A program made the position numbers and the translations under genes. Below are positions 14,336-29,503 of a stretch of DNA of 64,000 bases, in pieces. Source of the stretch: Myxococcota bacterium (GTDB lineage: Bacteria > Myxococcota_A > UBA9160 > UBA6930). Each line of letters starts with the position of its first letter. The first letter of the stretch is position 1. Below the pieces are notes generated by a model. That model had not been told where the DNA came from. It worked only from the letters and a program-made list of their open reading frames with translations, and searched no databases. Where the stretch lies: the NCBI GenBank assembly GCA_965223415.1, contig OZ245002.1, forward strand, positions 2,048,001 through 2,112,000. Direction: 5' to 3'.

Positions 14336-15373
14336 TTACCCGAGCGGCCCCTTCGACGGGCCGGTGCGCCGCTCCGCGGGCCATGGCTGCAGGTCCAGGG
14401 GGCTGCGCACTCCGAAGCCGCCGCGGTTCAGCACGTGGGTGTAGACCATCGTCGTGCTGACACTGCGGTGGCCCAGGAGCTCCTGGACCGTGCGGATATC
14501 GTGGCCGCTCTCGAGGAGGTGAGTCGCGAAGCTGTGGCGGAGGGTGTGGCAGCTGACACGCTTGGCGAGCCCCGCGCGCTGCGCCGCATTCTTCACGGCG
14601 CGCTGTACCGGCGCTTCGCTGAGATGGTGCCGTCGGTCGCCGCCGCCACGGGGATCTCGGGAGCGGCGAGCCGCAGGAAAGACCCAGAACCACGTCCAGC
14701 TCCGCGCGGCCTTCGGGAACTTTCGCGCCAATGCGTCGGGCAGGAACACGCCGGGGCGCCCGTCCGCGACGTCGCGTTCGCGGAGGACGCGCGCTGCTTC
14801 GAGCTGGGCACGCAACGGCTCCACCAGCGCATCGGGCAGCATCGTCCTGCGATCGCGGCGGCCCTTGCCGTCCCTCACCAGGACCTCGCGGCGAGCGAAG
14901 TCCAGATCCTTCACGCGGAGACGCAGTGCCTCGAGCAGCCTGAGGCCCGAGCCGTAGAGCAACCCAGCGACGAGGGAGGAAGTGCCCGTGAGCTCCGCCA
15001 GCAGCGCCTGCGTCTCGCTGACGCTGAGGACGACCGGGAGGCGGCGCGGCTTGCGGGCGCGAACCGGAGCGAGGCTGCCGAGATCACGCCCCAGGACCTC
15101 GCGGTAGAGGAACAGCAGGGCGCCAAGCGCCTGGTTCTGCGTGGACGGCGCCACGTCTTGCTCGACGGCGAGCCACGTGAGGAACGCCGACACCTCGGCG
15201 GCACCCATGTCCGCGGGGTGACGCGTCCCCTGATGGAGGATGAAGCGCCGGATCCACCCGACGTACGCCTCTTCCGTCCGGAGGCTGTAGCCGCGAACCC
15301 GGATCGCGTCCCGAACCTGATCGAGCAACCGCGGCGGCTGCCCTTCTCCCCGTTCCGGGGAGCGTTTCGGCAT
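14336..15373 (-). CDS. intI: Integron integrase
   Basis: [41 protein letters not shown], plus the integron-specific insertion [13 protein letters not shown]...WVFPA. Confidence 0.97.
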
Positions 15374-15639
15374 GGTGTGGAACGACCCTGTCGCCCGGCC
15401 CGACGGGAGGGCCGCGGCGCGGGTGGGGTGGTCAATCGAGGCTACCAGCTTCGCGGGGCGGGGCCAGCGGGGGAGTCCCGAGAGCGGGCTCCGCCACGAG
15501 ACGCCGCCGCCTGTCGCACGAATTCGTTTCGAGAGACCCAGCTCGCCCGAATTGACTTCGAGCGCTCAGTATTCCCGAGGGGGCCGCAGCGAGACCCCGA
15601 GCGCGTCCAGTTCGGTGTAGACTCACTAGGGAGAATTGG

Positions 15640-15667
15640 TTCGGTGAGACCTACTATCTAGTTGGGC
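15640..15667 (+). other. Putative attI site
   Basis: GTTGGGC core at 15661-15667 divergent from intI; GTTGGGCGGCAGG is complementary to CCTGCCGCCCAAC at the end of cassette 1; left limit uncertain. Confidence 0.75.
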
Positions 15668-15680
15668 GGCAGGGAGTTCG

Positions 15681-16406
15681 ATGAAGCGAGACTTCATCAT
15701 TTCCGAGATCAAGCGCACAGCCTCCGACAACGACGGGGTCCCTCTCGGCCAGCGCGCCTTCGCCACCACAACGGGGATCCGCAGGCACGACTGGTATGGG
15801 CGTTTCTGGCCGAACTGGAGCGCCGCGCTCTCAGACGCCGGTTTCGAGCCCAACGTCTGGCAGGACAAGATTCCCGAAGACCTCCTGCTCGAGAAACTCG
15901 TCGAACTCATCTCTGAACTCGACAAATTCCCCACCGACGCGGAGCTTCGGCAAAAACGACGCGAGAATCCGAGCTTTCCAAGCCACAGCACCATGCATCG
16001 GCTCGGTCCCAGAGCCGAAAGGGCTCGGCGAATCATCGACTACTGCTCGACCGACGAGGACCTCTCCACGGTTGTAGCTATCTGCACCTCCATCGCTGAG
16101 CAAGCAGTCCCGCCGGCCAATGTGCCCGCCGACCCCAGCGAAGCTGAAGAGTTCGGAACCGTCTACCTCATCAAATCCGGACGTCATTACAAAGTCGGAA
16201 GAACCAATGCATTTGGGCGTCGCGAGCGCGAAATCGAGCTCCAGCTTCCCGATAAGGCGCAGACGGTTCATACCATCACCACGGACGATCCTGTCGGAAT
16301 CGAAGCCTACTGGCACCGCCGATTCGCCGATCGTCGCAAGAACGGAGAGTGGTTCGAGCTGTCGCCCGAAGACATTCGAGCCTTCAAGAGGCGAACCTTC
16401 ATGTAG
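15681..16406 (+). CDS. Cassette 1: GIY-YIG (T5orf172-like) nuclease with N-terminal helical repeats
   Basis: VYLIKSG..YKVGRT...E..WHRRF...NGEWF; lower GC than host genes. Confidence 0.85.
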   Translation: MKRDFIISEIKRTASDNDGVPLGQRAFATTTGIRRHDWYGRFWPNWSAALSDAGFEPNVWQDKIPEDLLLEKLVELISELDKFPTDAELRQKRRENPSFPSHSTMHRLGPRAERARRIIDYCSTDEDLSTVVAICTSIAEQAVPPANVPADPSEAEEFGTVYLIKSGRHYKVGRTNAFGRREREIELQLPDKAQTVHTITTDDPVGIEAYWHRRFADRRKNGEWFELSPEDIRAFKRRTFM

Positions 16407-16414
16407 CGCCTGCC

Positions 16415-16550
16415 GCCCAACAAGGCGCTGCAGCTGACGAGCCACAGCTCGTTCCAATCGACCCGTGGTAGTGTTTGGCATCGAATTTGGAAGCTTCGAG
16501 CGGGCTGCAGAGGCGCTGTGGCTCGCAGCTGAGCGCCAGGTCCGTTAGCC
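16415..16550 (+). other. attC site 1 (R' core hit by IS110, then IS1380)
   Basis: R'' GCCCAAC, L'' GCAGCTGAC, L' GCAGCTGAG, R' GTTAG|; removing both ISs restores GTTAGGC. Confidence 0.92.
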
Positions 16551-18073
16551 CTGATCCGGCATTGCGAGGTGTAGGGAAAGCCCGGAATTGAAAGTGGCTC
16601 CGTCGGTGTGCTTGATGGAAGTGCCAACCACCATCATGCCTCCGAGGAGCCACATTCGTGAAGCTAAGCAGACACCGGATTCGAGCCCGCGTCAAGGGCG
16701 AATTGTCGATCGCCTTCACGGATGAGGCGCTGACGAGCTACGGCGGGCTGGAGCTGTTCCGGCGCTTCTTCGACCGCTTTTGGGCAGAGCGCCTGAAAGC
16801 GGCCTTTGCGGATCGGGCGTTCGACTCGGACTACGGATCCTTCCGCTGCATGCTGGTGGTGGTGGGGATGCTGCTGCTGGGAGGGAGCCGTCTCTCGCAT
16901 GTCCGGGTGCTCGATCGGGATCCGTTGTTTCGGCGGTTCGTCCGATTGCAGCGGCTTCCGGACGAGCGGACCCTGGCGAGGAACCTGAAGGAGCTGACGT
17001 CGGGCTACCGCGATCGTCTGAACGAACTGCTGCGGGACATGGCCTATGGAACCCACACAGGGCTCGGCTTGGAGCGGGCCACGATCGAGCTGGACGGCAC
17101 CGTGCTTCGGACGGGCGAGTACGTGGACGGCGCCGAGCGCGGCTTCAACCCACATCACCCGAAGGACCCGTCCTACTACCCGCTGACGGCGCACCTGGCG
17201 CAGACGAGCCAGCTGCTCGGCGTATGGAACCGGCCGGGCAATGTGAACGATGCGGTGGGCGCTGCGGAGAAGCTGGCCTTTCTCCTGGGCGACGCGAAGC
17301 GGCGCCTCGATCGGGTCCCGATCGAGGTGCGGCTCGATGGCGCCTTCTTCCAGAAGGCCGTTCTCGAGGTTCTCACGGCCTCTCGCGTGGAGTACGCCCT
17401 CAAGGTCCCCATGTGGCGCTGGCTCGGCGTGCGTGAGAAGATCGCCGCCCGGAAGCGTTGGCACCGCGTCAACGCGAGCGTCGACGCCTTCTCCGTCGTC
17501 CACCGGATCCCACAGTGGAAGCGCTGCGAGCGGATCGTGGTGTTCCGCAAGAAGGTCTCCGGGCGAAGCGCGAAGAACTTCCAGCTCGACCTCTTCACCC
17601 CGGACGATGGCCACTACGAGTACTCGATGGTCGCGACGAACAAGCGGACCAGCGAGGCCGCCGTCTGGGCCTTCATGGCCGGACGCGGCGGCCACGAGAA
17701 GACGCTGGCCGAGCTCAAACAGCACCTGGCGTTCGCCACCATCCCGACCCAGGACTGGGACGCCAACAGCAACTGGCAGCTGCTCAGTGCCCTGACCCAC
17801 AACCTGGTGCGGGACTTCCAAGCCACGCTTGGCCTGCCAGAGCGACCCAACGGCCGAAAGCGGACCGCCCGGCTCCGCTTCCCCTCGCTCCGCACGCTCC
17901 GCTTCGAGCTGATCCAGCTCCCTGGCCGCATCGCTCGGCCTGCCGGACGCGCTTCGCTCCGAATCGCCGCGTCCTCGCGCAGCCGCTCCACCATCCGGGC
18001 CGCCGAGACCGCGCTCGCCGCGTGAGCCCGCCAGACCTACGCTCGGATCCGTGATCTCAATGCCGGATCAGGG
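16549..18073 (+). mobile_element. IS1380-family insertion sequence
   Basis: 16-bp perfect TIR CCCTGATCCGGCATTG; 4-bp TSD TTAG at 16545-16548 and 18074-18077. Confidence 0.92.
16658..18025 (+). CDS. IS1380-family DDE transposase
   Basis: LTSYGGL, ELDGT, RPGN, RLDGAF, RGGHE..AELK. Confidence 0.9.
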   Translation: MKLSRHRIRARVKGELSIAFTDEALTSYGGLELFRRFFDRFWAERLKAAFADRAFDSDYGSFRCMLVVVGMLLLGGSRLSHVRVLDRDPLFRRFVRLQRLPDERTLARNLKELTSGYRDRLNELLRDMAYGTHTGLGLERATIELDGTVLRTGEYVDGAERGFNPHHPKDPSYYPLTAHLAQTSQLLGVWNRPGNVNDAVGAAEKLAFLLGDAKRRLDRVPIEVRLDGAFFQKAVLEVLTASRVEYALKVPMWRWLGVREKIAARKRWHRVNASVDAFSVVHRIPQWKRCERIVVFRKKVSGRSAKNFQLDLFTPDDGHYEYSMVATNKRTSEAAVWAFMAGRGGHEKTLAELKQHLAFATIPTQDWDANSNWQLLSALTHNLVRDFQATLGLPERPNGRKRTARLRFPSLRTLRFELIQLPGRIARPAGRASLRIAASSRSRSTIRAAETALAA

Positions 18074-18092
18074 TTAGATACTCCCTTCGTCG

Positions 18093-19088
18093 TCAACCCT
18101 TCGTGGCGAAGAATTTCTCGCCAAGGAAGTCCTGGTCGTGGCGGAGCATGCCGTAGATGGCGTGGAGCAGCTTCCGCATGACGGCGACGAGTGCTTGCAT
18201 CTTGGTTTTGCCCTTGGAGAGCAGCTTCTCGTAGAAGGCCTTCACGTTCGGTTCCCAGCGTGCAGCGACCATCGCAGGAAGAAAGAGTGCGCGGCGAAGG
18301 TGGGCGTTGCCGGTCTTGCTGATGCGAGCTGGCTTGTGCACAGAGGTGCCCGATTGAAACTGTCGGGGGTCGAGGCCCGCATGCGCGACCCATTGCCGGG
18401 TCGTCATGTCCTTGGGCAAGGTGCCTAGCTCGGCGAGCAACTGGATGCCGGCTGCGTCGGCGATACCCTTGATCGATGTGATGTGGCCGAAGTCTCTGGC
18501 GAGCTCGGGGCTCTGCTCGATCACCTTCAACGCTTGCTTGCGCAGCCGATCGATTCGCCCCTCCAGGAGCTCGATCAGTTCGCGGATGTCTTGCTTCACG
18601 AACTCACTGAGCTCCTCGCTCTGGTCGTTGGCATGGAGCCGGTTCTTCTCCTGCGTCACGGTCTTGCTCAGAGCCTCCACGCGGCGGGAGAGGGCCCGTA
18701 CCTCCAGAATTCGGGGGTCCGGCGGAGTCCAGGCGGAAAACTCCATGCGCATTCCGAACTCGAGAATCGTTTCCGCATCGAGCGCATCCGTCTTGGAGCG
18801 TTGAAGCGATGCCTTGGCGAACGCGGCAATGGCCCGCGGGTTCGCCACCATCACCTGGGACGCCTTCGCACGGTGAAGCGCGAACGCGAGGTCGAGGCCG
18901 TACACCCCGGTCGATTCCAGGACGACGCGCGCCGTCGCATTCCCCTTCGTGGCCCACCGAATCAGCCTCTGGTGGCCCTTGGGATCGTTCGCAAAGACCA
19001 GCCCGCCCTCGCGAGTTCCGTTCCGGTCGATGGCGACGACGAGCTCCTTCGCCCCGACGTCCACGCCCACGTAATGACACTTCTTCAA
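18093..19088 (-). CDS. IS110 DEDD recombinase/transposase (331 aa)
   Basis: TTG start after GGAGG; GVDV, LESTG, KTDALDA (DEDD); QSGTS serine; GNAHLR; MRKL. Confidence 0.95.
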   Translation of the reverse strand: MKKCHYVGVDVGAKELVVAIDRNGTREGGLVFANDPKGHQRLIRWATKGNATARVVLESTGVYGLDLAFALHRAKASQVMVANPRAIAAFAKASLQRSKTDALDAETILEFGMRMEFSAWTPPDPRILEVRALSRRVEALSKTVTQEKNRLHANDQSEELSEFVKQDIRELIELLEGRIDRLRKQALKVIEQSPELARDFGHITSIKGIADAAGIQLLAELGTLPKDMTTRQWVAHAGLDPRQFQSGTSVHKPARISKTGNAHLRRALFLPAMVAARWEPNVKAFYEKLLSKGKTKMQALVAVMRKLLHAIYGMLRHDQDFLGEKFFATKG

Positions 19089-19139
19089 GGTCTCTCCTCC
19101 CCGTGATAAGCTGGGACCCGGGTCTCCCGACCCTGCACA

Positions 19140-19305
19140 TTCACCTACGGACCTTGTAGACGCAGGCTCTCGGGCCTCGGATACTCCACGGCATGGGTGA
19201 CGAGGGCGGGAGGCCCATCTAACGGACAAGCTCTCTGGCTTCAGGCAGCGACGGCCTTTCCCGGGAACCCATCTCGGAGTCTCACTCAGGCCCGAAGAGC
19301 CTGCT
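19140..19305 (-). ncRNA. Predicted bridge RNA of IS110 element A
   Basis: 5' hairpin, then loop with guides UCGCUGCCU (19243-19251) and GUCCGUUAG (19219-19227) matching the target, then loop with GGAGUAUC (19180-19187) and UACAAG (19153-19158) matching the donor; RNA ends approximate. Confidence 0.88.
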
Positions 19306-19324
19306 CAGAGGTACAAGGCGGCTC

Positions 19325-19711
19325 ATGCGGAGTTCGTTGCTTGCACTTGCGGTTCTGCTGACGGCTTGTAGCGATCCTTGGGAGTGCAAACTCGACCTCC
19401 GAGAACAGCTATCGGAGATCTCCACAACGGAGGTGCGTCTCCGCGACGTCACCGATTTCGATTGGACCACGGTGAGCGTCTTCGGCCCTTACACTCCCGG
19501 CGAGGAGATTAGGAAGCTCGGCGTCACCTATGAACCATCTCCCCTGGGGTTCGATCACGTACCTGAGTCTGCTGCCGAGCTCGTCTTCCTAAGCGAGGAT
19601 CAGCCGGTCTGTCGGCATACATGGTTTCACCATGACTCACGATACAGCTTCCGTGCCTGGGAAGAGTTCGATCCAACAGATCCCGTCTTGGTTCCCTATC
19701 GAACTCCCTAA
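19325..19711 (+). CDS. Cassette 2: hypothetical lipoprotein
   Basis: Lipobox LLTAC; FDW..V..FGPY motif; ATG just after the restored GTTAGGC. Confidence 0.8.
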   Translation: MRSSLLALAVLLTACSDPWECKLDLREQLSEISTTEVRLRDVTDFDWTTVSVFGPYTPGEEIRKLGVTYEPSPLGFDHVPESAAELVFLSEDQPVCRHTWFHHDSRYSFRAWEEFDPTDPVLVPYRTP

Positions 19712-20358
19712 GCATCTGAACGATCCGGCTGATGGTTGACAGAAGTCCAGGTACATCCTTTACACGCCTGTGATCGTTCCGGTTCGCTGATCGTACCTTC
19801 CGAGGAGGGTGCGGTAGTAGATGATGTTCCAGAGCCCGTCGCCGATCTCTTCGAGTCCGATGGTCTCGCCGGCCAGGGCATGGGAGAGAAACGGCAGCCG
19901 GGGCTGCATGCGGAAGGTGCCGGCGTTGTTGACGCGTCGCACCTCGAGGTGGGCCGGATACTCGGGCTCGGGGAGACTCTCTGGGTAGCTGCGCTTGGCC
20001 GGGCTCCAGAGCTCGTCCGGGACCTGATCGCCGATGCCTTCGTGGGGCCGCTCGGCGTTGTAGCGGTCGCGAAAGCGGTCGAAGCGCCGCTGCTGGGATC
20101 GTCGGGTGGCTGCCGGAGGCCGAGCCGTCTCCTTCTTCAGCTCGCGGTGCATCCGTTCGTGAGCTCCGTTCTCCTGCGGGCTCGCGGGTCGGATCCGTTG
20201 GTGGACGATGCCGAGCTTCATCCACCAGACGTTCAGCTCGCAGAGGCCGTGGATGCCGGTTGTCGCAGGACGTGATATTCGAGGGCTAAGAGGACACGTA
20301 GATTTGCGCACCTCCTGTTGAGCCGCTGCGCGGCACGTTCCCCGTGAGGGAGGGGGGC

Positions 20359-21630
20359 GTGGGGCAGCGGCGACTGAGGCAGGAGGAAGTGATGACGATC
20401 GAAGTGCTGCACGAGCGGGGGTGCTCGAACCGGGAGATCGCCCGCCAGCTGGGGATCCGGGAGAGCGCGGTGCGCTACCGGCTGAAGCGGCTGGCGGAGG
20501 GGGCGCGAGACGGCCGGAGCGGGAAGCCCTTCCTGGCCGAGGCGGTCCACGAGGTGATCGCGGAGTGGCTGGAGGCGAGCTCGGGAGGCCGTGGCGTGAA
20601 CCTGCAGGAGCTTCACGAGTTCCTGGTGGAGGAGCACGGGTACACGGGGAGCTCCAAGAGCGTGCAGCGGTACGTGCGGGCCCGGTTCCCGAGACCGAAG
20701 GTGCGGAGCCGGCGTCGGGTGGAGACACCGCCCGGGGCGCAGGGTCAGGTGGACTGGGGCGAGTTTCCGGGCGTGCGGATCGGGGGCCAGGAGGTGGACC
20801 TGCATGCCTTCCACCTGGTGCTCTCGCACTCGCGGCGAGAAGCGGTGGTGTGGTCGGAGCGGGCGGACACGCTGGCGTGGCTGGACGTGCACAACCGGGC
20901 CTTCGAGCGGCTGGGCGGGGTGCCGGCGGTGCTGCGGGTCGACAACGTGAAGACAGCGGTGGCGAAGGGGGCGGGGCCATGGGGGACGGTGAACCCGGCT
21001 TACGCGAGCTATGCCGGGGCCCTTCGCTTCCACGTGGACGCCACCCGTCCCCGCCAGCCGCAGGAGAAGGGGAAGGTGGAGCGTCGGATCCTGGGGCACC
21101 GGCGGGGCTTCGATCCGCGTCGGCGGGAGCACGAGAGCCTGGAGTCGCTGCAAGCGTGGACGGACGGCCAGGTGGCGCGCTCGAGCCACCGGCGGCAGTG
21201 CCCGGCGACGGGCACGACGGTCTTCCAGGCGTGGGAGGCGGAGAAGCCCCATCTCGGGGCCCTGCCCGAGCGGCTTCCCGAGCCCTTCGACCTGGCCGTG
21301 ATGCGACGTGTCGGGCGCGACGCCACGGTGCGCTTCGAGGGGCGTACCTACAGCGTCCCCTTCCGCTTCGTCGAGCAGAGCGTCGAGGTGCGCGGCTGCG
21401 CCCGGCAGGTGCAGGTCTGGGCCGAGGGCTCGGTGGTGGCCGCGCACCCGCGCCACACGCGAAGCCGCCTGCTGCTGGACCCGAGCCACTACGAGGGGCC
21501 GAGCACGGAGGGGGTGGAGGCGCCCGTACCGCTCGGGCGCATGGGTCGACGCCTCCAGGAGCTGTGGGCGATGGAGCCGGAGCAGCGGCCGATCGACCTC
21601 TATGCCGATCTGGCGGAGGTGGCGCGATGA
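20359..21630 (+). CDS. istA: IS21 transposase
   Basis: HTH, ETPPG.QGQVDWG, VDNVK, KGKVER; start estimated. Confidence 0.93.
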   Translation: MGQRRLRQEEVMTIEVLHERGCSNREIARQLGIRESAVRYRLKRLAEGARDGRSGKPFLAEAVHEVIAEWLEASSGGRGVNLQELHEFLVEEHGYTGSSKSVQRYVRARFPRPKVRSRRRVETPPGAQGQVDWGEFPGVRIGGQEVDLHAFHLVLSHSRREAVVWSERADTLAWLDVHNRAFERLGGVPAVLRVDNVKTAVAKGAGPWGTVNPAYASYAGALRFHVDATRPRQPQEKGKVERRILGHRRGFDPRRREHESLESLQAWTDGQVARSSHRRQCPATGTTVFQAWEAEKPHLGALPERLPEPFDLAVMRRVGRDATVRFEGRTYSVPFRFVEQSVEVRGCARQVQVWAEGSVVAAHPRHTRSRLLLDPSHYEGPSTEGVEAPVPLGRMGRRLQELWAMEPEQRPIDLYADLAEVAR

Positions 21631-22427
21631 CGGCGGGAAACCCGGTGCCCAAGAAGGGCGGCAAGGTGGATCTCGACCCGACCCGCGAGCGGCTCGTGCG
21701 CCTCGGCCTCCATCACGCGGCCGAGCACATCGGCGAGGAGCTGGCCCGAGCGACCAAGGACGACCTCGTGCCCCACCGCTTCCTCGACCTGCTGCTCGAG
21801 GCCGAGCTGCAGCACCGCGAGGAGCGGAGGATGAAGACCTCGCTCCGTCTCTCGGGCCTTCCCACGGGGCAGACCCTCGGCAACTTCGACTTCGCCTTCC
21901 AGCCGAGTGTGGAGCGGAGCCGGATCGAGACGCTGGGCACCTGCGCGTGGATCCGGGCCAAGGAGAGTCTGCTGATCCAGGGTCCGCCGGGAGTGGGCAA
22001 GACCCACCTGGCGGTGGCCCTGGGGGTGCGGGCCGTGGAGAACGGCTTCTCCGTGGCCTTCCATCGCCTCGAGGACCTGCTGGCGGCCCTCAAGCGCGAC
22101 GCCGAGATCAGCCCGCAACGGCTGCGGCGGCGCAAGCACATGAACGTGGCGCTCCTCGTCATCGACGAGGTCGGCTTCGAGCCCATGACGCGCCAGGAGG
22201 CGAGCCTCTTCTTCCGGCTCGTCTCCTACCGCTATGGGAGGGGCTCGATCCTGATCACCACGAACAAGGGCATCGCCGACTGGCCCGAGGTGCTGGCGGG
22301 CGACGAGGTGCTGGCCACCGCCATCCTCGATCGCCTCCTCCACCACAGCCAGGTGCTCAACATCTCGGGGCGGAGCTACCGGCTCCGCGAGCTCGAGCAG
22401 GCCGCGGGGCAAAGCGCCCAGCGTTGA
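21627..22427 (+). CDS. istB: IS21 helper ATPase
   Basis: GPPGVGKTHLA, IDEVG, AILDRLLHH, GRSYR. Confidence 0.95.
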   Translation: MTAGNPVPKKGGKVDLDPTRERLVRLGLHHAAEHIGEELARATKDDLVPHRFLDLLLEAELQHREERRMKTSLRLSGLPTGQTLGNFDFAFQPSVERSRIETLGTCAWIRAKESLLIQGPPGVGKTHLAVALGVRAVENGFSVAFHRLEDLLAALKRDAEISPQRLRRRKHMNVALLVIDEVGFEPMTRQEASLFFRLVSYRYGRGSILITTNKGIADWPEVLAGDEVLATAILDRLLHHSQVLNISGRSYRLRELEQAAGQSAQR

Positions 22428-23311
22428 GGCCCCAGAGGGCGGCCTGACGGCCGTGCTCTCCTTCGGAGAGCGGAAGAGAAGAAGGAAGAACCGAACATCA
22501 ACCCAGGGGGGTGCGCAAAACTAGCCGTCCTCTTAGCGCGCAAGAGATGACGTCCCTCGACACCGGTCGAGGCGAAGGGCGCACCGTTGTCGCTGCGGAT
22601 CGCCTCGGGAAGCCCGACCTCGCGGAACAGCCGTCGGAAGACGGGCTTCGCATGCTCCGTCCTCACGGAGGGCAGCCCTCGGCACACGAGGAGCTTCCGG
22701 CTGAAGTGGTCGGTCACCGTGAGCGGGTAGCAGTAGACGCCTGTCGAGGGACGTCATCTCTTGTGCGAAACTGGCCCTTGAAGTCGACGGGCCAGACCTC
22801 GTTCGGCCGCTCCGTCTGGAGCGGGGCGGCACCCGGATGGTCCCACTTCCGCCGCCGGCGGTTCTTGCGCAGCTTCCCGTGGCGATCGAGGATCGCGTTG
22901 ATCGTGCTCTGGGCCGGCAGCGCTCTTCGCGGGTGCCGCCGGGCCAGCACCAGGCGAAGCTTCTTCGCCCCCCAGCCGTACTGGGCCCGAAGCGCCAGGA
23001 CCTCCCGCTCCACGGCCTCGGGCGTCCGATGCGGGCAGCTCCTGGGCCTTCGCGAGCGCTCCTCGAGGCCCTCGCCCGCCTCGGCCCGCTCGAGCCACTT
23101 GTAGCCCGTGGGCCGGCTGACCCCGTAGCGCTCGCAGAGCTCCTTCATCCCCCACTGGCCGCTCGCATGATCGGCCACGAAGGCCTTCCGCTGTTCCGTC
23201 CGATTCGTTTGCATCCAAGGCATCCCTGGGTGTAAACGATGTACCCGGACTTCTGTAAACCATGTCCCCGGACCGTACCGTCCGCCGCCTAACCAGCGGC
23301 TGCAGCTGACC

Positions 23312-23557
23312 CGTTTAGGGAGTGTCAACTCCAATGATCGCGAAGCACGTGTGGGTCTTGGTGGTGTCCTCCAACGGAATCGGCTTGCGTCCCTGCGGGT
23401 TCGGGTTCAGTCCAAACGCGTTGTCGGCCTCGTGGGCTCAATGAGGGGTTCGGGGCGACGGTGGTGAATCGGGGCCAAGGGCTCATGGGCCGCAGTCAGC
23501 TGCCCGCCTACCGTCTTCGTTGGAACACAAGCGAGAAGGGGTCCTGGGGGAGCGGGG
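23312..23557 (-). ncRNA. Candidate guide (bridge/seek) RNA region of element B copy 1
   Basis: Non-coding end downstream of the transposase, with GCAGCUGAC (23495-23503) identical to the attC sequence abutting the insertion point. Confidence 0.6.
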
Positions 23558-24607
23558 CTACGCCATGCCAAGGCACCTCCGGAGATCGAAGGCCTCGCCG
23601 CGGGTGAGCGTGACCCAGACGCTGACGAGGAGTCTGCGAGCCAAGGCCATGCGGACCTTGTTCTTGTGGACGCGGGTCCGCATCGTCTTCGCCCAGGCAC
23701 GAACCAACGGGTCGTCCTTCATCAGGCGAACCGCCCATTGGCTGACGATCCAGCGGAGCTCGGCCTGGCCTTGGCGGGTCATGCGGCCGTGGTGGGCGTG
23801 GTCGGCTGACTGGTTCACCTTGGGGGTGAAGCCGGCGAAGGCCGAGACCGCACGGGGGCCTCGGAATCGGTGCGGGTCGCCGATCTCGGCGAGCAGCGTG
23901 GCAGCCGATTGCGTCCCGATGCTCGGGAGCTCCTGCTCGAGGGCCTGGACGTCGGGATCCTCTCGCCCGATCCGTCGGATCTCCCGATCGAGAGCCAGCA
24001 CCTGGCCCTGCAGGCTATCGAGCACCTGGAGCAGGGCCTTGAAGGCGGTCTGCATCTCCAGGGTCGGCAGGGTGACGGTGCGGAGCTTCTCCCGGCTCGG
24101 CTTGGTATAGAGCGCGCTCGTGGGAGCGGGAATCCGGTAGGCGTTCAGGAAGCCCCGGAGCTGGTTCACGGCCTGTTGGCGCATCTGGACGAGGCGGTGG
24201 CGGACCCGAAGGAGCTTCCTCCTCCCGTACTCCTCGTCGCTCGGGTAGTAGGTCGTTGCCACCCGATCCAGATCACCGAGCCAGAGCCGGCGTGCAATCT
24301 CGGCTGCATCTCGCCGGTCCGTCTTCTTGCCGAGCTTCTTCAGGTCGAGCTTGCGCGGATCACAGACCAGAACGTCGAGCTGCGCCTCTCGGCAGGCGTT
24401 GACGAACCACCGGTTGAGGCCCAACGCCTCGACGGCTACGCGGCAATGGGGTCCGAAGAACTTCAGCCGCTCCACGACCCCGAGGCCCTGTTCAAGGCTC
24501 TCGGAGCGGATCCTCTCCTCGGCGATCTTCTCACCCCGCGCATCCAGCACGCAGATCTGGATCACGGTGCGATGCAAGTCGATCCCAGCGAAGTACTCTG
24601 TCGTCAT
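23558..24607 (-). CDS. IS110/IS1111 transposase (349 aa), copy 1
   Basis: GIDLH, VEA, KTDRRDA (DEDD); NQSA serine; ARRL. Confidence 0.93.
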   Translation of the reverse strand: MTTEYFAGIDLHRTVIQICVLDARGEKIAEERIRSESLEQGLGVVERLKFFGPHCRVAVEALGLNRWFVNACREAQLDVLVCDPRKLDLKKLGKKTDRRDAAEIARRLWLGDLDRVATTYYPSDEEYGRRKLLRVRHRLVQMRQQAVNQLRGFLNAYRIPAPTSALYTKPSREKLRTVTLPTLEMQTAFKALLQVLDSLQGQVLALDREIRRIGREDPDVQALEQELPSIGTQSAATLLAEIGDPHRFRGPRAVSAFAGFTPKVNQSADHAHHGRMTRQGQAELRWIVSQWAVRLMKDDPLVRAWAKTMRTRVHKNKVRMALARRLLVSVWVTLTRGEAFDLRRCLGMA

Positions 24608-24765
24608 GGTCAGTCTCCTTGGGGAGTGTTTGTTGGAACACAGCCAAGGTGGCTGTTCCTCGGTGGACACCCAAAACCGGCCATAGAAGGACGTCTGAAA
24701 AGCGGCCATAGGGGCTGACGCCCAGGACGTTGACGACGGCGAGGGACCTGCGATCCCCCGCCGCC

Positions 24766-26355
24766 ATGGCGAACCTTCTGGGCAACGAGAAACGCGAGCA
24801 GATTCTGGCACTTGGCCGCCTCGGCTGGTCGCTTCGGCGGATCGAGGAGGCGACGGGCGTGCGCCGGGAGACGGCGAGCCGTTACCTCCGGGCCGCGGGG
24901 ATCGCGGTGCGATCTCCTGGTCGCTGGGGGCACGGGGCCCCAAACCCGGCCATAGAGGCGTCCACCGACTCGAAGGCCCCGGCAAAAGCGGCCAAAGAGG
25001 CGTCCACCGATCCGGCCTGGCCGCCGATGCCGGGCCGGAGCCCCCAGGCCAGCGCCTGCGAGCCCTACCGCGAGTGGATCGAGGCGGGCGTGCGCCAGGG
25101 CCGGACGGCGATGGCGATCTGGCAGGACCTAGTCGATGACCACGGCTTCGCCTTCAGCTATGCGAGTGTGAAGCGCTTCGTGGCGAAGCAGCGAGCCGCG
25201 GCGCCGCGCGAGGCGCACCCGGTGATCGAGACGGCACCGGGAGAAGAGGGCCAGGTCGACTACGGCGACGGGCCGATGGTGCGGCATCCCGGGTCGGGGA
25301 AGTACCGGCGCACGAGGCTGTTCGTCTTCACCCTGGGCTACAGCCGCAAGTGCGTTCGGCTGCTCGTGTGGAAGTCGAGCAGCCAGGTCTGGTCGGAGCT
25401 GCACGAGAAGGCCTTCCGCCGGCTGGGCGGTGCACCGCGCACCGTCGTCCTCGACAACCTCAAGGAGGGCGTTCTCAAGCCCGACGTCTACGACCCCGCG
25501 CTCAACCCCCTCTACCGCGATGTGCTCGCCCACTACGGCGTGACGGCGCTTCCGTGCCGGGTGCGCCACCCCGATCGCAAGGGGAAGGTCGAGTCCGGGG
25601 TGCGCCACGCGCAGCAGAAGGTCCGCGGGATGCGCTTCGAGTCGCTCGAGCAGGCCCAGGCCTACCTCGACCGCTGGGAGCGCCGATGGGCCGACACCCG
25701 CATCCACGGCACGACCAAGCGCCAGGTGGCGGCGATGTACGAAGAGGAGAAGCCGCACCTGCTCGGGCTTCCCATCGAGCCCTTCCGCTACTACCAGCAC
25801 GGCGAGCGCACGGTGCACCTCGACGGGGCCATCGAGGTGGAGGGGGCCTACTACCACGCGCCGCCGGGCTGGCTGGGGCGGCGGGTGGCCGTCCAATGGG
25901 ACGGGCTGCGGGTGCGGATGCTCGATCTGCAGACGGGGGAGCTGCTGCGCGAGCACGTCCGCCAGAGGCGGGGGCGCCGCAGGATGCGGGAGGAGGACCG
26001 CCCGAAGCGGACGCCGGCCACGACCCTCCAGCTGCTCGCGCGGGCCCGGCGCGCCGGCGTCCACGTGGGCGAGGTGTGTGAGGCGATCCATCGCCTGGAC
26101 GGCGAGCCCGGGGTGCGTCGCATCCTGGGCGTGCTCTCCCTGTGCAAGCGCCACGGCATCCCTCGCGTCGACGATGCCTGCGCCACCGCCCTGGCCCTCG
26201 AGCTGCCCACCTACGCGTTCGTCAAGCGCTACCTGGAGCGTCAGCCCGAGCTGCCGCTCTCGCTCAAGCAGGTGGACCCGCTCATCCGCCAGCTCACCCA
26301 CTACCGCGATCTCATCGATCGCCGCACCGAGGAGACCTCTCGTGAATCTGACTGA
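24766..26355 (+). CDS. istA: IS21 transposase
   Basis: ETAPGEEGQVDYG, LDNLKEGV, KGKVES. Confidence 0.93.
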   Translation: MANLLGNEKREQILALGRLGWSLRRIEEATGVRRETASRYLRAAGIAVRSPGRWGHGAPNPAIEASTDSKAPAKAAKEASTDPAWPPMPGRSPQASACEPYREWIEAGVRQGRTAMAIWQDLVDDHGFAFSYASVKRFVAKQRAAAPREAHPVIETAPGEEGQVDYGDGPMVRHPGSGKYRRTRLFVFTLGYSRKCVRLLVWKSSSQVWSELHEKAFRRLGGAPRTVVLDNLKEGVLKPDVYDPALNPLYRDVLAHYGVTALPCRVRHPDRKGKVESGVRHAQQKVRGMRFESLEQAQAYLDRWERRWADTRIHGTTKRQVAAMYEEEKPHLLGLPIEPFRYYQHGERTVHLDGAIEVEGAYYHAPPGWLGRRVAVQWDGLRVRMLDLQTGELLREHVRQRRGRRRMREEDRPKRTPATTLQLLARARRAGVHVGEVCEAIHRLDGEPGVRRILGVLSLCKRHGIPRVDDACATALALELPTYAFVKRYLERQPELPLSLKQVDPLIRQLTHYRDLIDRRTEETSRESD

Positions 26356-27103
26356 ACTCGATCCCGCACTGCGCAAGCTCCGGCTCTCGGGCATGGCCGA
26401 GCATCTGGAGATGCGGCTCCTCGAAGCCCAGAAGGGCGAGTGGGCGGCCATCGACCTGCTCTCGGCGCTCGTCCAGGACGAGCTCGAGCGCCGGCAGGAC
26501 CGACTGCTGGCCCGGCGCATCAAGCAGGCCCGCTTCCGCGACGCCAACCGGACCCTCAACGGCTTCGACTTCCGCTTCAATACGAAGATCGATCGCGCCC
26601 TGGTCTTCGAGCTCGCCACGGGCCGCTTCCTCGAGCAAGCCGAGGACGCTGTCTTCCTCGGCCCGCCGGGCACGGGCAAGAGCCATCTCGCCCAGGCGAT
26701 CGGCCTCGCCGTCATCCACCAGGGCCATCGCGTCGCCTACCGCGAGGTCCACGTCCTCCTCGAGGAACTCGCTGATGCGACCCTCGACGGCACCCGCAAG
26801 GAGTACCTGGCCGAGATCGCGAGAGTGCCGCTGCTCATCCTCGACGACCTCGGCATGCGCAAGCTCCCCACCACGGCCGCCGAGGACCTCCTCGAGCTGA
26901 TCATGCGCCGCTACGAGCGCACCAGCACCCTCGTCACCTCGAACCGACCCGTCGACGACTGGGGCCGGCTCCTCGGCGACACGGCAGCCGTCACCGCCAT
27001 GCTCGACCGCCTCCTCCACCACGGCCACCTGCTCAAGTGCGGACCCCGCAGCTGGCGCACCAAGAAGACCACCGCCTTGCCGAAGGAGGCCCCGGCGCGG
27101 TAG
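26342..27103 (+). CDS. istB: IS21 helper ATPase
   Basis: GPPGTGKSHLA, LDDLG, AMLDRLLHH, SWR. Confidence 0.95.
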   Translation: MNLTELDPALRKLRLSGMAEHLEMRLLEAQKGEWAAIDLLSALVQDELERRQDRLLARRIKQARFRDANRTLNGFDFRFNTKIDRALVFELATGRFLEQAEDAVFLGPPGTGKSHLAQAIGLAVIHQGHRVAYREVHVLLEELADATLDGTRKEYLAEIARVPLLILDDLGMRKLPTTAAEDLLELIMRRYERTSTLVTSNRPVDDWGRLLGDTAAVTAMLDRLLHHGHLLKCGPRSWRTKKTTALPKEAPAR

Positions 27104-27318
27104 AACCCCTCTGTCCTGGGCGCGGCCCTTTGGCCGCCTTTGAGACGTCCACCTTTGGCCGGTTTTCAGACGTCCACCGAGGGCTGTTCTCCAAGGAGCT
27201 GACCTCCCTATACCCTCCGGGCACCCGCGCGTTCCAACCGGGGCGTGGTACCCTTAGGGTTCCACTCAGGCGCCTCAGCGAGCCTCGGGGCCGGCCCGGC
27301 AGCTGAGCCGCCTGTCCG

Positions 27319-27540
27319 TTAGGCGGCGTTGGGCTTCCAGCGCATGGATGGCCGCTTCTTCGTGCGAGCGCACTCGCCGAGATAGAGATTGATCAGTGTT
27401 TGGTACGGGATGTCCGTCTCTTCCGACAGCTCACGGAAGTACGCGAGCGTCTCCTCGTCCAGACGAATTGTGATCTGCTTCTTCAGTCGCCTGGCGTACG
27501 GGTTCCTCTTTCCCTTCGAGAAGTCGTAGTTCTTTCTCAT
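27319..27540 (-). CDS. brnA: Cassette 3: BrnA/CopG-like antitoxin
   Basis: MRKNYDFSKG.RNPY...KKQITIRLD...YF...PYQTLIN; stop TAA lies inside GTTAGGC. Confidence 0.88.
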   Translation of the reverse strand: MRKNYDFSKGKRNPYARRLKKQITIRLDEETLAYFRELSEETDIPYQTLINLYLGECARTKKRPSMRWKPNAA

Positions 27541-27827
27541 CGCTTCCACCGCCTCTCGTAGTCTCGTCTCTCGGCCCTGTTGGCGCGCCGCGCCGAGATG
27601 ACGCGAATCACGTGGTCTTCCTCTCGGTAGCAGTGGCAAACCACCAGGGCCCGGAGTGCAGCCGAAAGCCCAATCATCACGAAGCGGTCCTCGGCTTCAT
27701 CCGGGTCCTCGATCAAGATCGCAGCTTCGTCGTAGAAGACCGTCCGCGCTTCCTCGAACGAAACACCGTGTTTCTTCTGATTGGCCTTGTCCTTCTTCGG
27801 GTCCCAGTCGAAGTCGATATCGGCCAT
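27537..27827 (-). CDS. brnT: Cassette 3: BrnT family ribonuclease toxin
   Basis: FDWDPKK...N.KKHGVSFEEA..VF...IRVISARRA. Confidence 0.92.
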   Translation of the reverse strand: MADIDFDWDPKKDKANQKKHGVSFEEARTVFYDEAAILIEDPDEAEDRFVMIGLSAALRALVVCHCYREEDHVIRVISARRANRAERRDYERRWKR

Positions 27828-27892
27828 CCGACCCTAGTGTAGTTATACTGTAGTGGAACGCAACGCCGCCTAACCAGCGGCTGCAGCTGACC

Positions 27893-28138
27893 CGTTTAGG
27901 GAGTGTCAACTCCAATGATCGCGAAGCACGTGTGGGTCTTGGTGGTGTCCTCCAACGGAATCGGCTTGCGTCCCTGCGGGTTCGGGTTCAGTCCAAACGC
28001 GTTGTCGGCCTCGTGGGCTCAATGAGGGGTTCGGGGCGACGGTGGTGAATCGGGGCCAAGGGCTCATGGGCCGCAGTCAGCTGCCCGCCTACCGTCTTCG
28101 TTGGAACACAAGCGAGAAGGGGTCCTGGGGGAGCGGGG
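27893..28138 (-). ncRNA. Candidate guide RNA region of element B copy 2
   Basis: Same as copy 1; target-matching 9-mer at 28076-28084. Confidence 0.6.
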
Positions 28139-29188
28139 CTACGCCATGCCAAGGCACCTCCGGAGATCGAAGGCCTCGCCGCGGGTGAGCGTGACCCAGA
28201 CGCTGACGAGGAGTCTGCGAGCCAAGGCCATGCGGACCTTGTTCTTGTGGACGCGGGTCCGCATCGTCTTCGCCCAGGCACGAACCAACGGGTCGTCCTT
28301 CATCAGGCGAACCGCCCATTGGCTGACGATCCAGCGGAGCTCGGCCTGGCCTTGGCGGGTCATGCGGCCGTGGTGGGCGTGGTCGGCTGACTGGTTCACC
28401 TTGGGGGTGAAGCCGGCGAAGGCCGAGACCGCACGGGGGCCTCGGAATCGGTGCGGGTCGCCGATCTCGGCGAGCAGCGTGGCAGCCGATTGCGTCCCGA
28501 TGCTCGGGAGCTCCTGCTCGAGGGCCTGGACGTCGGGATCCTCTCGCCCGATCCGTCGGATCTCCCGATCGAGAGCCAGCACCTGGCCCTGCAGGCTATC
28601 GAGCACCTGGAGCAGGGCCTTGAAGGCGGTCTGCATCTCCAGGGTCGGCAGGGTGACGGTGCGGAGCTTCTCCCGGCTCGGCTTGGTATAGAGCGCGCTC
28701 GTGGGAGCGGGAATCCGGTAGGCGTTCAGGAAGCCCCGGAGCTGGTTCACGGCCTGTTGGCGCATCTGGACGAGGCGGTGGCGGACCCGAAGGAGCTTCC
28801 TCCTCCCGTACTCCTCGTCGCTCGGGTAGTAGGTCGTTGCCACCCGATCCAGATCACCGAGCCAGAGCCGGCGTGCAATCTCGGCTGCATCTCGCCGGTC
28901 CGTCTTCTTGCCGAGCTTCTTCAGGTCGAGCTTGCGCGGATCACAGACCAGAACGTCGAGCTGCGCCTCTCGGCAGGCGTTGACGAACCACCGGTTGAGG
29001 CCCAACGCCTCGACGGCTACGCGGCAATGGGGTCCGAAGAACTTCAGCCGCTCCACGACCCCGAGGCCCTGTTCAAGGCTCTCGGAGCGGATCCTCTCCT
29101 CGGCGATCTTCTCACCCCGCGCATCCAGCACGCAGATCTGGATCACGGTGCGATGCAAGTCGATCCCAGCGAAGTACTCTGTCGTCAT
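28139..29188 (-). CDS. IS110/IS1111 transposase (349 aa), copy 2
   Basis: Identical protein to 23558-24607. Confidence 0.94.
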   Translation of the reverse strand: MTTEYFAGIDLHRTVIQICVLDARGEKIAEERIRSESLEQGLGVVERLKFFGPHCRVAVEALGLNRWFVNACREAQLDVLVCDPRKLDLKKLGKKTDRRDAAEIARRLWLGDLDRVATTYYPSDEEYGRRKLLRVRHRLVQMRQQAVNQLRGFLNAYRIPAPTSALYTKPSREKLRTVTLPTLEMQTAFKALLQVLDSLQGQVLALDREIRRIGREDPDVQALEQELPSIGTQSAATLLAEIGDPHRFRGPRAVSAFAGFTPKVNQSADHAHHGRMTRQGQAELRWIVSQWAVRLMKDDPLVRAWAKTMRTRVHKNKVRMALARRLLVSVWVTLTRGEAFDLRRCLGMA

Positions 29189-29503
29189 GGTCAGTCTCCT
29201 TGGGGAGTGTTTGTTGGAACACAGCCAAGGTGGCTGTTCTCCAAGGAGCTGACCTCCCTATACCCTCCGGGGAACCGCCCCTTCCAATCGGGCCATGGTA
29301 CCCTGGGGTTCCCATGGCGCGCTCTCGCCATCCGACAGGTGTCGGTTCTTCTGGCTCTTCACGGCGTCTCCGTGGCCTGGGGTTGGCGGTCAGCGCTGTC
29401 GGCTGCGGCGGAAGCGCGAGCGGCTCTCGTAGAGCCATGCAGCACGCCCGTTGGGCAGCATGACCCTCCCTGGCACCAAGCCAAGCACTACTGGGAACCA
29501 GCT

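Follow-up and report, generated by a model that had tools for sequence, protein, structure and literature searches.

Element A and its predicted bridge RNA

The window, the whole 64,000-nucleotide stretch that we analysed, spans C1:2048001-2112000 of the genome of a Myxococcota bacterium (5.83 Mb, single contig, 71% G+C). It carries an integron, with an integrase gene (intI), cassette 1, the recombination site attC1 and then an array laden with insertion sequences (IS). In this array, on the minus strand and antisense to the cassettes, lies element A (18078..19315, 1,238 bp), an IS of the IS110 group. It stands between two AG cores on the plus strand, which read CT in the transposase direction. 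The left core is at 18076..18077, and the right one, at 19316..19317, precedes GCGGC, with which cassette 2 originally began. The same 2-bp AG/CT core flanked all six copies of element A in the genome. From its gene, guides and insertion sites, we consider element A to be most probably (about 0.88) a complete and active IS621-like bridge recombination system, part of a widespread IS110-group lineage aimed at cassette boundaries.

The bridge recombinase gene (18093..19088, minus strand) encodes 331 amino acids from a TTG start. A DEDD RuvC-like domain (PF01548, E 4e-26) and a Tnp20 domain (PF02371, E 2e-20) were recognized. The residues D10, E58, D101, D104 and S246 were present, and we take their catalytic role to be the one they have in IS621. 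The nearest solved structures were ISCro4 (E 4e-49) and IS621 (E 2e-46), the identity to the latter being about 36%. The non-coding regions measure 227 nucleotides (nt) upstream and 15 nt downstream of the gene, and a non-coding region upstream of the gene is the layout of the IS110 group (PMC11187229). Element A had no sub-terminal inverted repeats, and its end 60 bases held no inverted match of 10–14 bases with up to two mismatches. Shared with IS621 and ISCro4 (PMC11208160; PDB 8wt6, 9t56) are the DEDD plus Tnp20 domains, the upstream non-coding region, a two-loop RNA with four guides (predicted in element A), the CT core and the lack of sub-terminal inverted repeats.

The upstream region (19089..19315, minus strand, 227 nt) encodes the predicted two-loop bridge RNA. 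We named a 25-pair model by eye and tested it on 20 sequences spanning the family. In these relatives 97.8% of the pairs could form and six pairs showed compensatory changes, compared with at most 56% pairing in slid controls. The four candidate guides, all on the minus strand, stand in the IS621 order (layout of PMC11208160). The left target guide GCTGCCT (19243..19249) matches the cassette start plus core, and the right target guide GTCCGTTAG (19219..19227), followed by AT, matches the R' side of the attC plus core; the target guides equal 12–14 bases around the attC R' box. The left donor guide GGAGTATC (19180..19187) matches element A's own end at 18077-18084, and the right donor guide TACAAG plus GT (19151..19158) its other end. 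Each right guide is followed by a dinucleotide, AT for the target guide and GT for the donor guide, that agrees with a junction formed by insertion; as we assign them, these dinucleotides fit the 'handshake' pattern that favours insertion (PMC13626964).

By analogy with IS621, element A would leave as a circle, whose joined ends would form a promoter. Of 62 full elements, 57 had TTGAC close to the end and, reading across the circle junction, a −10-like hexamer 17 bases further along, a spacing like that of −35 and −10 boxes. The bridge RNA would pair with the circle junction and the target, and the recombinase would exchange strands at the CT core. The guide would thereby read the cassette boundary, the most conserved linear sequence in the arrays of this host group. 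Landing two bases 3' of the GTT triplet, in antisense, would make element A formally the 5' part of the next cassette. It would spread by its own transposition, and carriage by the integrase (IntI) would be a side effect, limited to places where the downstream attC is intact. A sigma-70 consensus scan of 15300–19800, a weak test in a genome of 71% G+C, gave no promoter in this range, and no outward promoter was detected for element A by consensus scan.

In the window, element A is separated from attC1 by an IS1380-family element (16549..18073, plus strand, 1,525 bp; PF13701), with perfect 16-bp terminal inverted repeats and TTAG duplicated on both sides. A sequence-only reading of this DNA had taken 16544..19327 for one element. 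We rejected this, as the interval holds both the IS1380-family element (16549-18073) and element A (18078-19315). The same reading had placed the altered attC heptamer, GTTAGAT, at 18073-18079. The heptamer is there, but it is not the R' box of attC1: the IS1380-family element intervenes, and the opening G at 18073 is its last base. The attC1 R' box proper (16544-16550) now reads GTTAGCC, which fits GTTRRRY by sequence. Element A most likely inserted before the IS1380-family element, because the site reconstructed without the latter matches the guides of element A fully. The IS1380-family element had eight copies in the genome, seven flanked by CTAG and the copy at 16549-18073 by TTAG. This copy used the TTAG of the attC R' box, leaving a heptamer that conforms to GTTRRRY.

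Target sites in the genome and in relatives

The six genomic copies of element A were 100% identical and had six different flank pairs. Three were at attC R' boxes and three were not in attC. An insertion 3' of G|TT that changes GTTAGGC to GTTAGAT, as the sequence-only reading had proposed, was seen directly at the attC copies C1:2778106 (plus strand) and C1:2534539 (minus strand), and again in relatives. The 12-mer CCGTTAGGCRGC had seven pre-insertion sites in the genome, five in attC (three occupied) and two outside (one occupied, C1:4166329). With four of the seven perfect 12-base targets occupied, in attC and elsewhere, it is the sequence rather than the hairpin that appears to be read.

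The non-attC copies at C1:4166329 and C1:1179042 were inserted precisely at the TAG stop of long open frames (304 and 265 codons), and the frames stayed whole. The open frame at C1:4166329 is presumably panB. Two relics were also found at attC-derived sites. At C1:2531437-2531521 (minus strand), an attC is followed by no more of element A than its last 12 bases, representing a deletion relic; the first 76 bases of this attC equal those at C1:2773683. At C1:2528880-2529290 (minus strand), a decayed paralogue of element A, whose non-coding region and end are related to those of the intact element, has the left half of an attC on one side and the start of a cassette on the other.

To place these sites in a wider frame, we collected relatives. 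A protein search listed 120 matches, with 64–100% identity, and an alignment of 49 was used to search metagenomes; a first scan of genome contigs with a single protein gave only three loci. From the metagenomes we analysed the best 80 of at least 505 confirmed loci, and genome and plasmid searches added more. From 99 non-self loci, 27 were dropped (flank <45 bases, no true junction, or identity <53%), leaving 72 scorable relatives (53–86% identity). There was no close relative among plasmids (best 50%) or viral contigs (27–38%).

The attC position is not a chance one: the same attC base was used in three of the six genomic copies and in 52 of the 72 scorable relatives. Forty-eight of the 52 were called by a profile that we derived from 13 unoccupied attC sites of the same set of loci, and four by a folding test alone, which also passed 5 of 250 random genomic GTTAG sites (a set that may include true attC). 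In 39 of the 72 relatives, the attC directly upstream was full length back to R''. Insertions in attC occurred in every large branch of a quick tree, down to 53% identity; the tree was used descriptively, with no clade test. Among individual loci, L053 had its element directly after an attC left half (R'' and L'' only), and L063 had TTAGA duplicated at the junction. In L096 and L115, an element in a short (~60-base) attC had intI ~1 kb upstream, encoded on the cassette strand.

Twenty of the 72 relatives were not called attC. Seven of these (L013, L014, L016, L017, L018, L028 and L030; 83–86% identity) were located at the terminal bases of IS1595-type elements, for which Pfam PF12762 was confirmed in L016 and L028. 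Their right guide had changed from CCGTTAG to the GGATAG type, and we read them, from guides and flanks, as a natural retargeting from attC to the end of another transposon. In being aimed at another transposon's terminus they resemble IS4321 and IS5075, IS110-superfamily elements of the IS1111 group that target the terminal repeat of Tn21-family transposons. Outgroups (≤51% identity) had other guides and other targets, yet most of them shared the AT end.

Across the family, guides and targets agreed in the five core-adjacent bases. For the right guide, 318 of 340 positions were identical to the target in 68 loci, or 332 with G-T wobble, against a mean of 260 and a maximum of 282 in 2,000 shuffles. 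For the left guide the count was 266 of 305 (61 loci; L076 was left out, its flank being mis-picked), against a shuffled mean of 214 and maximum of 231. The right guide matched the target well over about 7 bases. Guides and targets also switched together, to GGAT in the IS1595 group, AGTCC in L042 and L043, CCCT in L032 and GGGTT in L083; a paired switch to ACGTT occurred in L055 and L090, on separate branches. These paired switches are, in our judgment of the sequences, stronger evidence for guide targeting than the identity totals.

Several points weigh against a guide-targeted bridge system. The relatives are kin and not independent, so the shuffle test overstates the agreement. Thirteen of the 72 were neither called attC nor at IS1595 ends, being at partial, divergent or non-attC sites. 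Two of the six copies of element A were at imperfect targets, which match the guides in part; half-match insertion, reported for IS621 (10.64898/2026.08.31.748434, a 2026 preprint), could explain them. Folded freely, the non-coding region scored no better than shuffled sequences (z = −1.12) and took a shape other than that of the two-loop model. Four contig sets contained no circle joint or empty-site joint of element A, an uninformative result, as contigs can miss such joints. Recognition of attC by element A might also depend on the folded structure of the site, or on IntI or a different host protein, the guide match being secondary. Three of six copies plus two relics in attC, a tiny part of the genome, would agree with this. 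However, the perfect non-attC target at C1:4166329 is occupied, partial guide matches are present at the two remaining non-attC copies, and relatives with changed guides are found at changed, non-attC targets. We hold recognition by structure to be very improbable.

The integron array, the upstream attC and possible carriage by IntI

The intI gene (14336..15373, minus strand) is an open frame of 345 amino acids with PF00589 and PF13495 and, by tblastn against the genome, its sole full-length copy. Between intI and the first open reading frame (ORF), GTTGGGC at 15661..15667 (plus strand) is, from its position, the probable attI crossover and start of cassette 1. The cassette 1 ORF (15681-16406) encodes a 241-amino-acid protein with matches to MUG113/T5orf172 and an HNH-associated repeat. 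Next comes attC1 (16415..16550, plus strand), with the R'' box GCCCAAC at 16415 and the crossover at 16544/16545, placed within G|TT as in PMC8876359. Its bottom strand folded into a hairpin (z = −3.67; as good in 0 of 200 shuffles), and it was the only full-length match to the attC profile in the window's array (E 3e-21).

Downstream of element A, the cassette 2 ORF (19325..19711, plus strand) encodes 128 amino acids with no match in Pfam. On its 3' side follows an element that, from its ends, we take to be IS481-like and that holds an IS21, and then attC2 (23287..27324, plus strand). The latter is split by element B, itself interrupted by a second IS21. The R' box of attC2, at 27318, is empty and reads GTTAGGC, and the next crossover after the unit of attC1 and element A is 10,774 bp away. 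The two IS21, nested in other IS at 20261-22562 and 24658-27182, are different and multi-copy, and with at least six IS insertions the array is under erosion. At 27322-27827, a minus-strand cassette carries a BrnT-family toxin gene (Pfam E 2.5e-29) and a likely antitoxin gene. An Rfam search of the window gave no match.

Element B is of the IS1111 type. The copy at 27893..29265 (minus strand, ends approximate) has sub-terminal inverted repeats matching at 9 of 10 positions and a 246-nt 3' non-coding region, which contains GCAGCTG, a match to the L box. It is inserted just inside L'' of an attC, fitting the IS1111-attC layout, and it breaks attC, as the sequence-only reading had said, by splitting the hairpin near its 5' end. 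We found four copies, all in attC next to L'' (window 23287-27324 and 27868-29312; C1 near 2534600-2536040 and 2774290-2778050). The proteins of elements A and B share about 26% identity over 155 residues.

The R' box is where recombination takes place, and AAC and GTT are the only conserved parts of attC (PMC2727003). When element A inserts, the attC upstream of it retains R'', L'', L' and its GTT triplet. In arrays, the bases 3' of G|TT derive from the next cassette anyway. As a measure of folding we used the AAC-GTT ensemble pairing probability, a looser form of the 'pfold' of PMC5371416. Among relatives that had both junctions and a complete attC upstream (17 sites), the median was 0.84 before and 0.60 after insertion (lowest 0.008), with a median cost of 3.2 kcal/mol in the folding model. 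Cassettes normally pair ~10 bases around the R box, and the insertion strips that extension. For attC1 the pairing was 0.87 originally, 0.03 with the element A end and 0.16 with the present IS1380 end; with the element A end about 9 kcal/mol were lost, and the lowest-energy fold no longer paired the R box. The expectation that the upstream attC stays usable thus held for the boxes and for a modelled pairing that remained high at the median, but the R stem was weakened. From the models, we think it quite probable that the site stays usable after insertion, most likely recombinable at a somewhat lower rate.

A low cost of the insertion, also supposed in the sequence-only reading, is doubtful given the weakening of the R stem, as in attC1, and the growth of cassettes to 1.7–2.1 kb. 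Seven would-be cassette circles grew from 438–819 to 1,665–2,057 bp, their R-box pairing fell from 0.11–0.97 to 0.04–0.60, and 2–14 kcal/mol were lost; two further units in this set were without an intact AAC. The insertion may even cripple the sites: by removing the extended R stem and adding 1.2 kb or more, it would freeze the downstream cassette along with the upstream attC, a consequence that has been proposed for IS1111-attC elements. The losses in attC1 and in the circles point this way, as does the drop described for cassettes of at least 1,500 bp when one site folds poorly (PMC5371416). Yet the insertion leaves AAC and GTT, the only conserved parts (PMC2727003), and 0.008, the lowest post-insertion value among the 17 sites, is far above the natural-site tail of 1e-5 to 1e-7 (PMC5371416), ours being the looser measure. 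We regard freezing as improbable.

Conversely, element A could be adapted to ride on IntI, keeping GTTRRRY so that cassettes move with it as cargo and aid its spread. The full-length attC directly upstream in 39 of the 72 relatives would suit such riding, and complete attC-element-ORF-attC units were found in L035, L048 and L080. The residual R-box pairing of the seven circles, 0.04–0.60, also speaks for it, as does the finding that large cassettes are excisable when both sites fold well (PMC5371416). The idea that IntI moves element A as cargo, raised in the sequence-only reading, has these complete units in its favour, but it did not hold for the window. Here the next two attCs carry element B, leaving element A without two foldable flanking attC/attI sites, and because of this the unit with element A, to judge from the sequence, cannot be excised by IntI at its own attC today. 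At each of the two remaining attC copies, the attC upstream contains element B, and none of the three copies lies in a clean excisable unit. A pairwise comparison of loci L001–L092, a small sample on short contigs, gave no two loci that had element and downstream cassette in common but differed in what lay upstream. A homologous cassette occurred in L005 and L053, with different elements, and identical elements with both flanks readable had different neighbours. No element was at attI among 98 junction-bearing loci, with intI in range for only one site on these short contigs; L005 and L118 were rejected as possible attI insertions, having no intI upstream.

The AT end speaks against riding as well. 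We rejected it as an attC-specific adaptation because it predates attC targeting, being shared with outgroups that do not target attC; for the same reason, keeping GTTRRRY would be inherited, and is doubtful as an adaptation. We favour spread of element A by its own guided transposition. An adaptation to riding on IntI seems rather unlikely, and that IntI carriage matters for the spread of element A can be put forward tentatively.

Relation to known systems and significance

IS621 targets repetitive extragenic palindromic (REP) sequences, whereas element A is aimed at the attC R' box. Pairing of the right target guide extends over ~7 bases in element A, compared with 4 in IS621. Two published IS110 targets, target_seq2459 and target_seq3248, appear to resemble the R'' side of an attC and are perhaps a second IS110-group route to attC. 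These attC-like targets, from supplement file 5 of PMC11208160, have a different bridge RNA. The motif CCTAACGGA was not found in the readable parts of the supplements of that paper, in which elements with the same donor end as element A have other targets.

Two other groups insert into attC. The IS1111-attC elements (ISKpn4, ISPst6, ISPa21, ISPa25; PMC11187229, PMC3001079, PMC11616780) resemble element A in having an IS110-superfamily recombinase, RNA guidance and an attC target entered in antisense. They differ in their sub-terminal inverted repeats of 11–13 bp and downstream non-coding region, both absent from element A, and in inserting near the attC 5' end (PMC3001079) and not at the 3' R' box. 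Lacking these three defining features, element A was rejected as an IS1111-attC element. Group IIC-attC introns (PMC3001079) are likewise RNA-directed to attC in antisense, and can block Pc transcription. In contrast to element A, they are reverse transcriptase retroelements near the attC 5' end, with a demonstrated outward promoter. Our literature search gave no IS110-group element described at the attC R' box or at IS1595 ends; ISfinder and the primary IS1111-attC papers were outside its scope, so a prior description is possible.

In the literature consulted, as far as accessible, the attC-targeting IS belong to the IS1111 group and split the site near the attC 5' end. An IS621-type branch appears to have reached attC independently, at the opposite end and just past the crossover. 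Experimental evidence is limited on whether IS in arrays freeze cassettes or travel with them (PMC11616780), a question that this lineage makes testable. In this family, nature also supplies a set of bridge RNAs that share one scaffold but are directed to different targets (attC, IS1595 ends and others), as well as a compact recombinase whose right guide is naturally long.

A broad IS110 lineage may have settled on the single array position where its insertion leaves attC working, making cassettes IntI-mobile carriers of a bridge recombinase, but we offer this as a speculative possibility only. If true, the lineage of element A would move by two routes, its own and that of the integron, and the sequence at the cassette boundaries of each host would be written into its guides. 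Should relatives work on other integron classes, a cassette-boundary bridge RNA could place DNA into arrays without destroying them.

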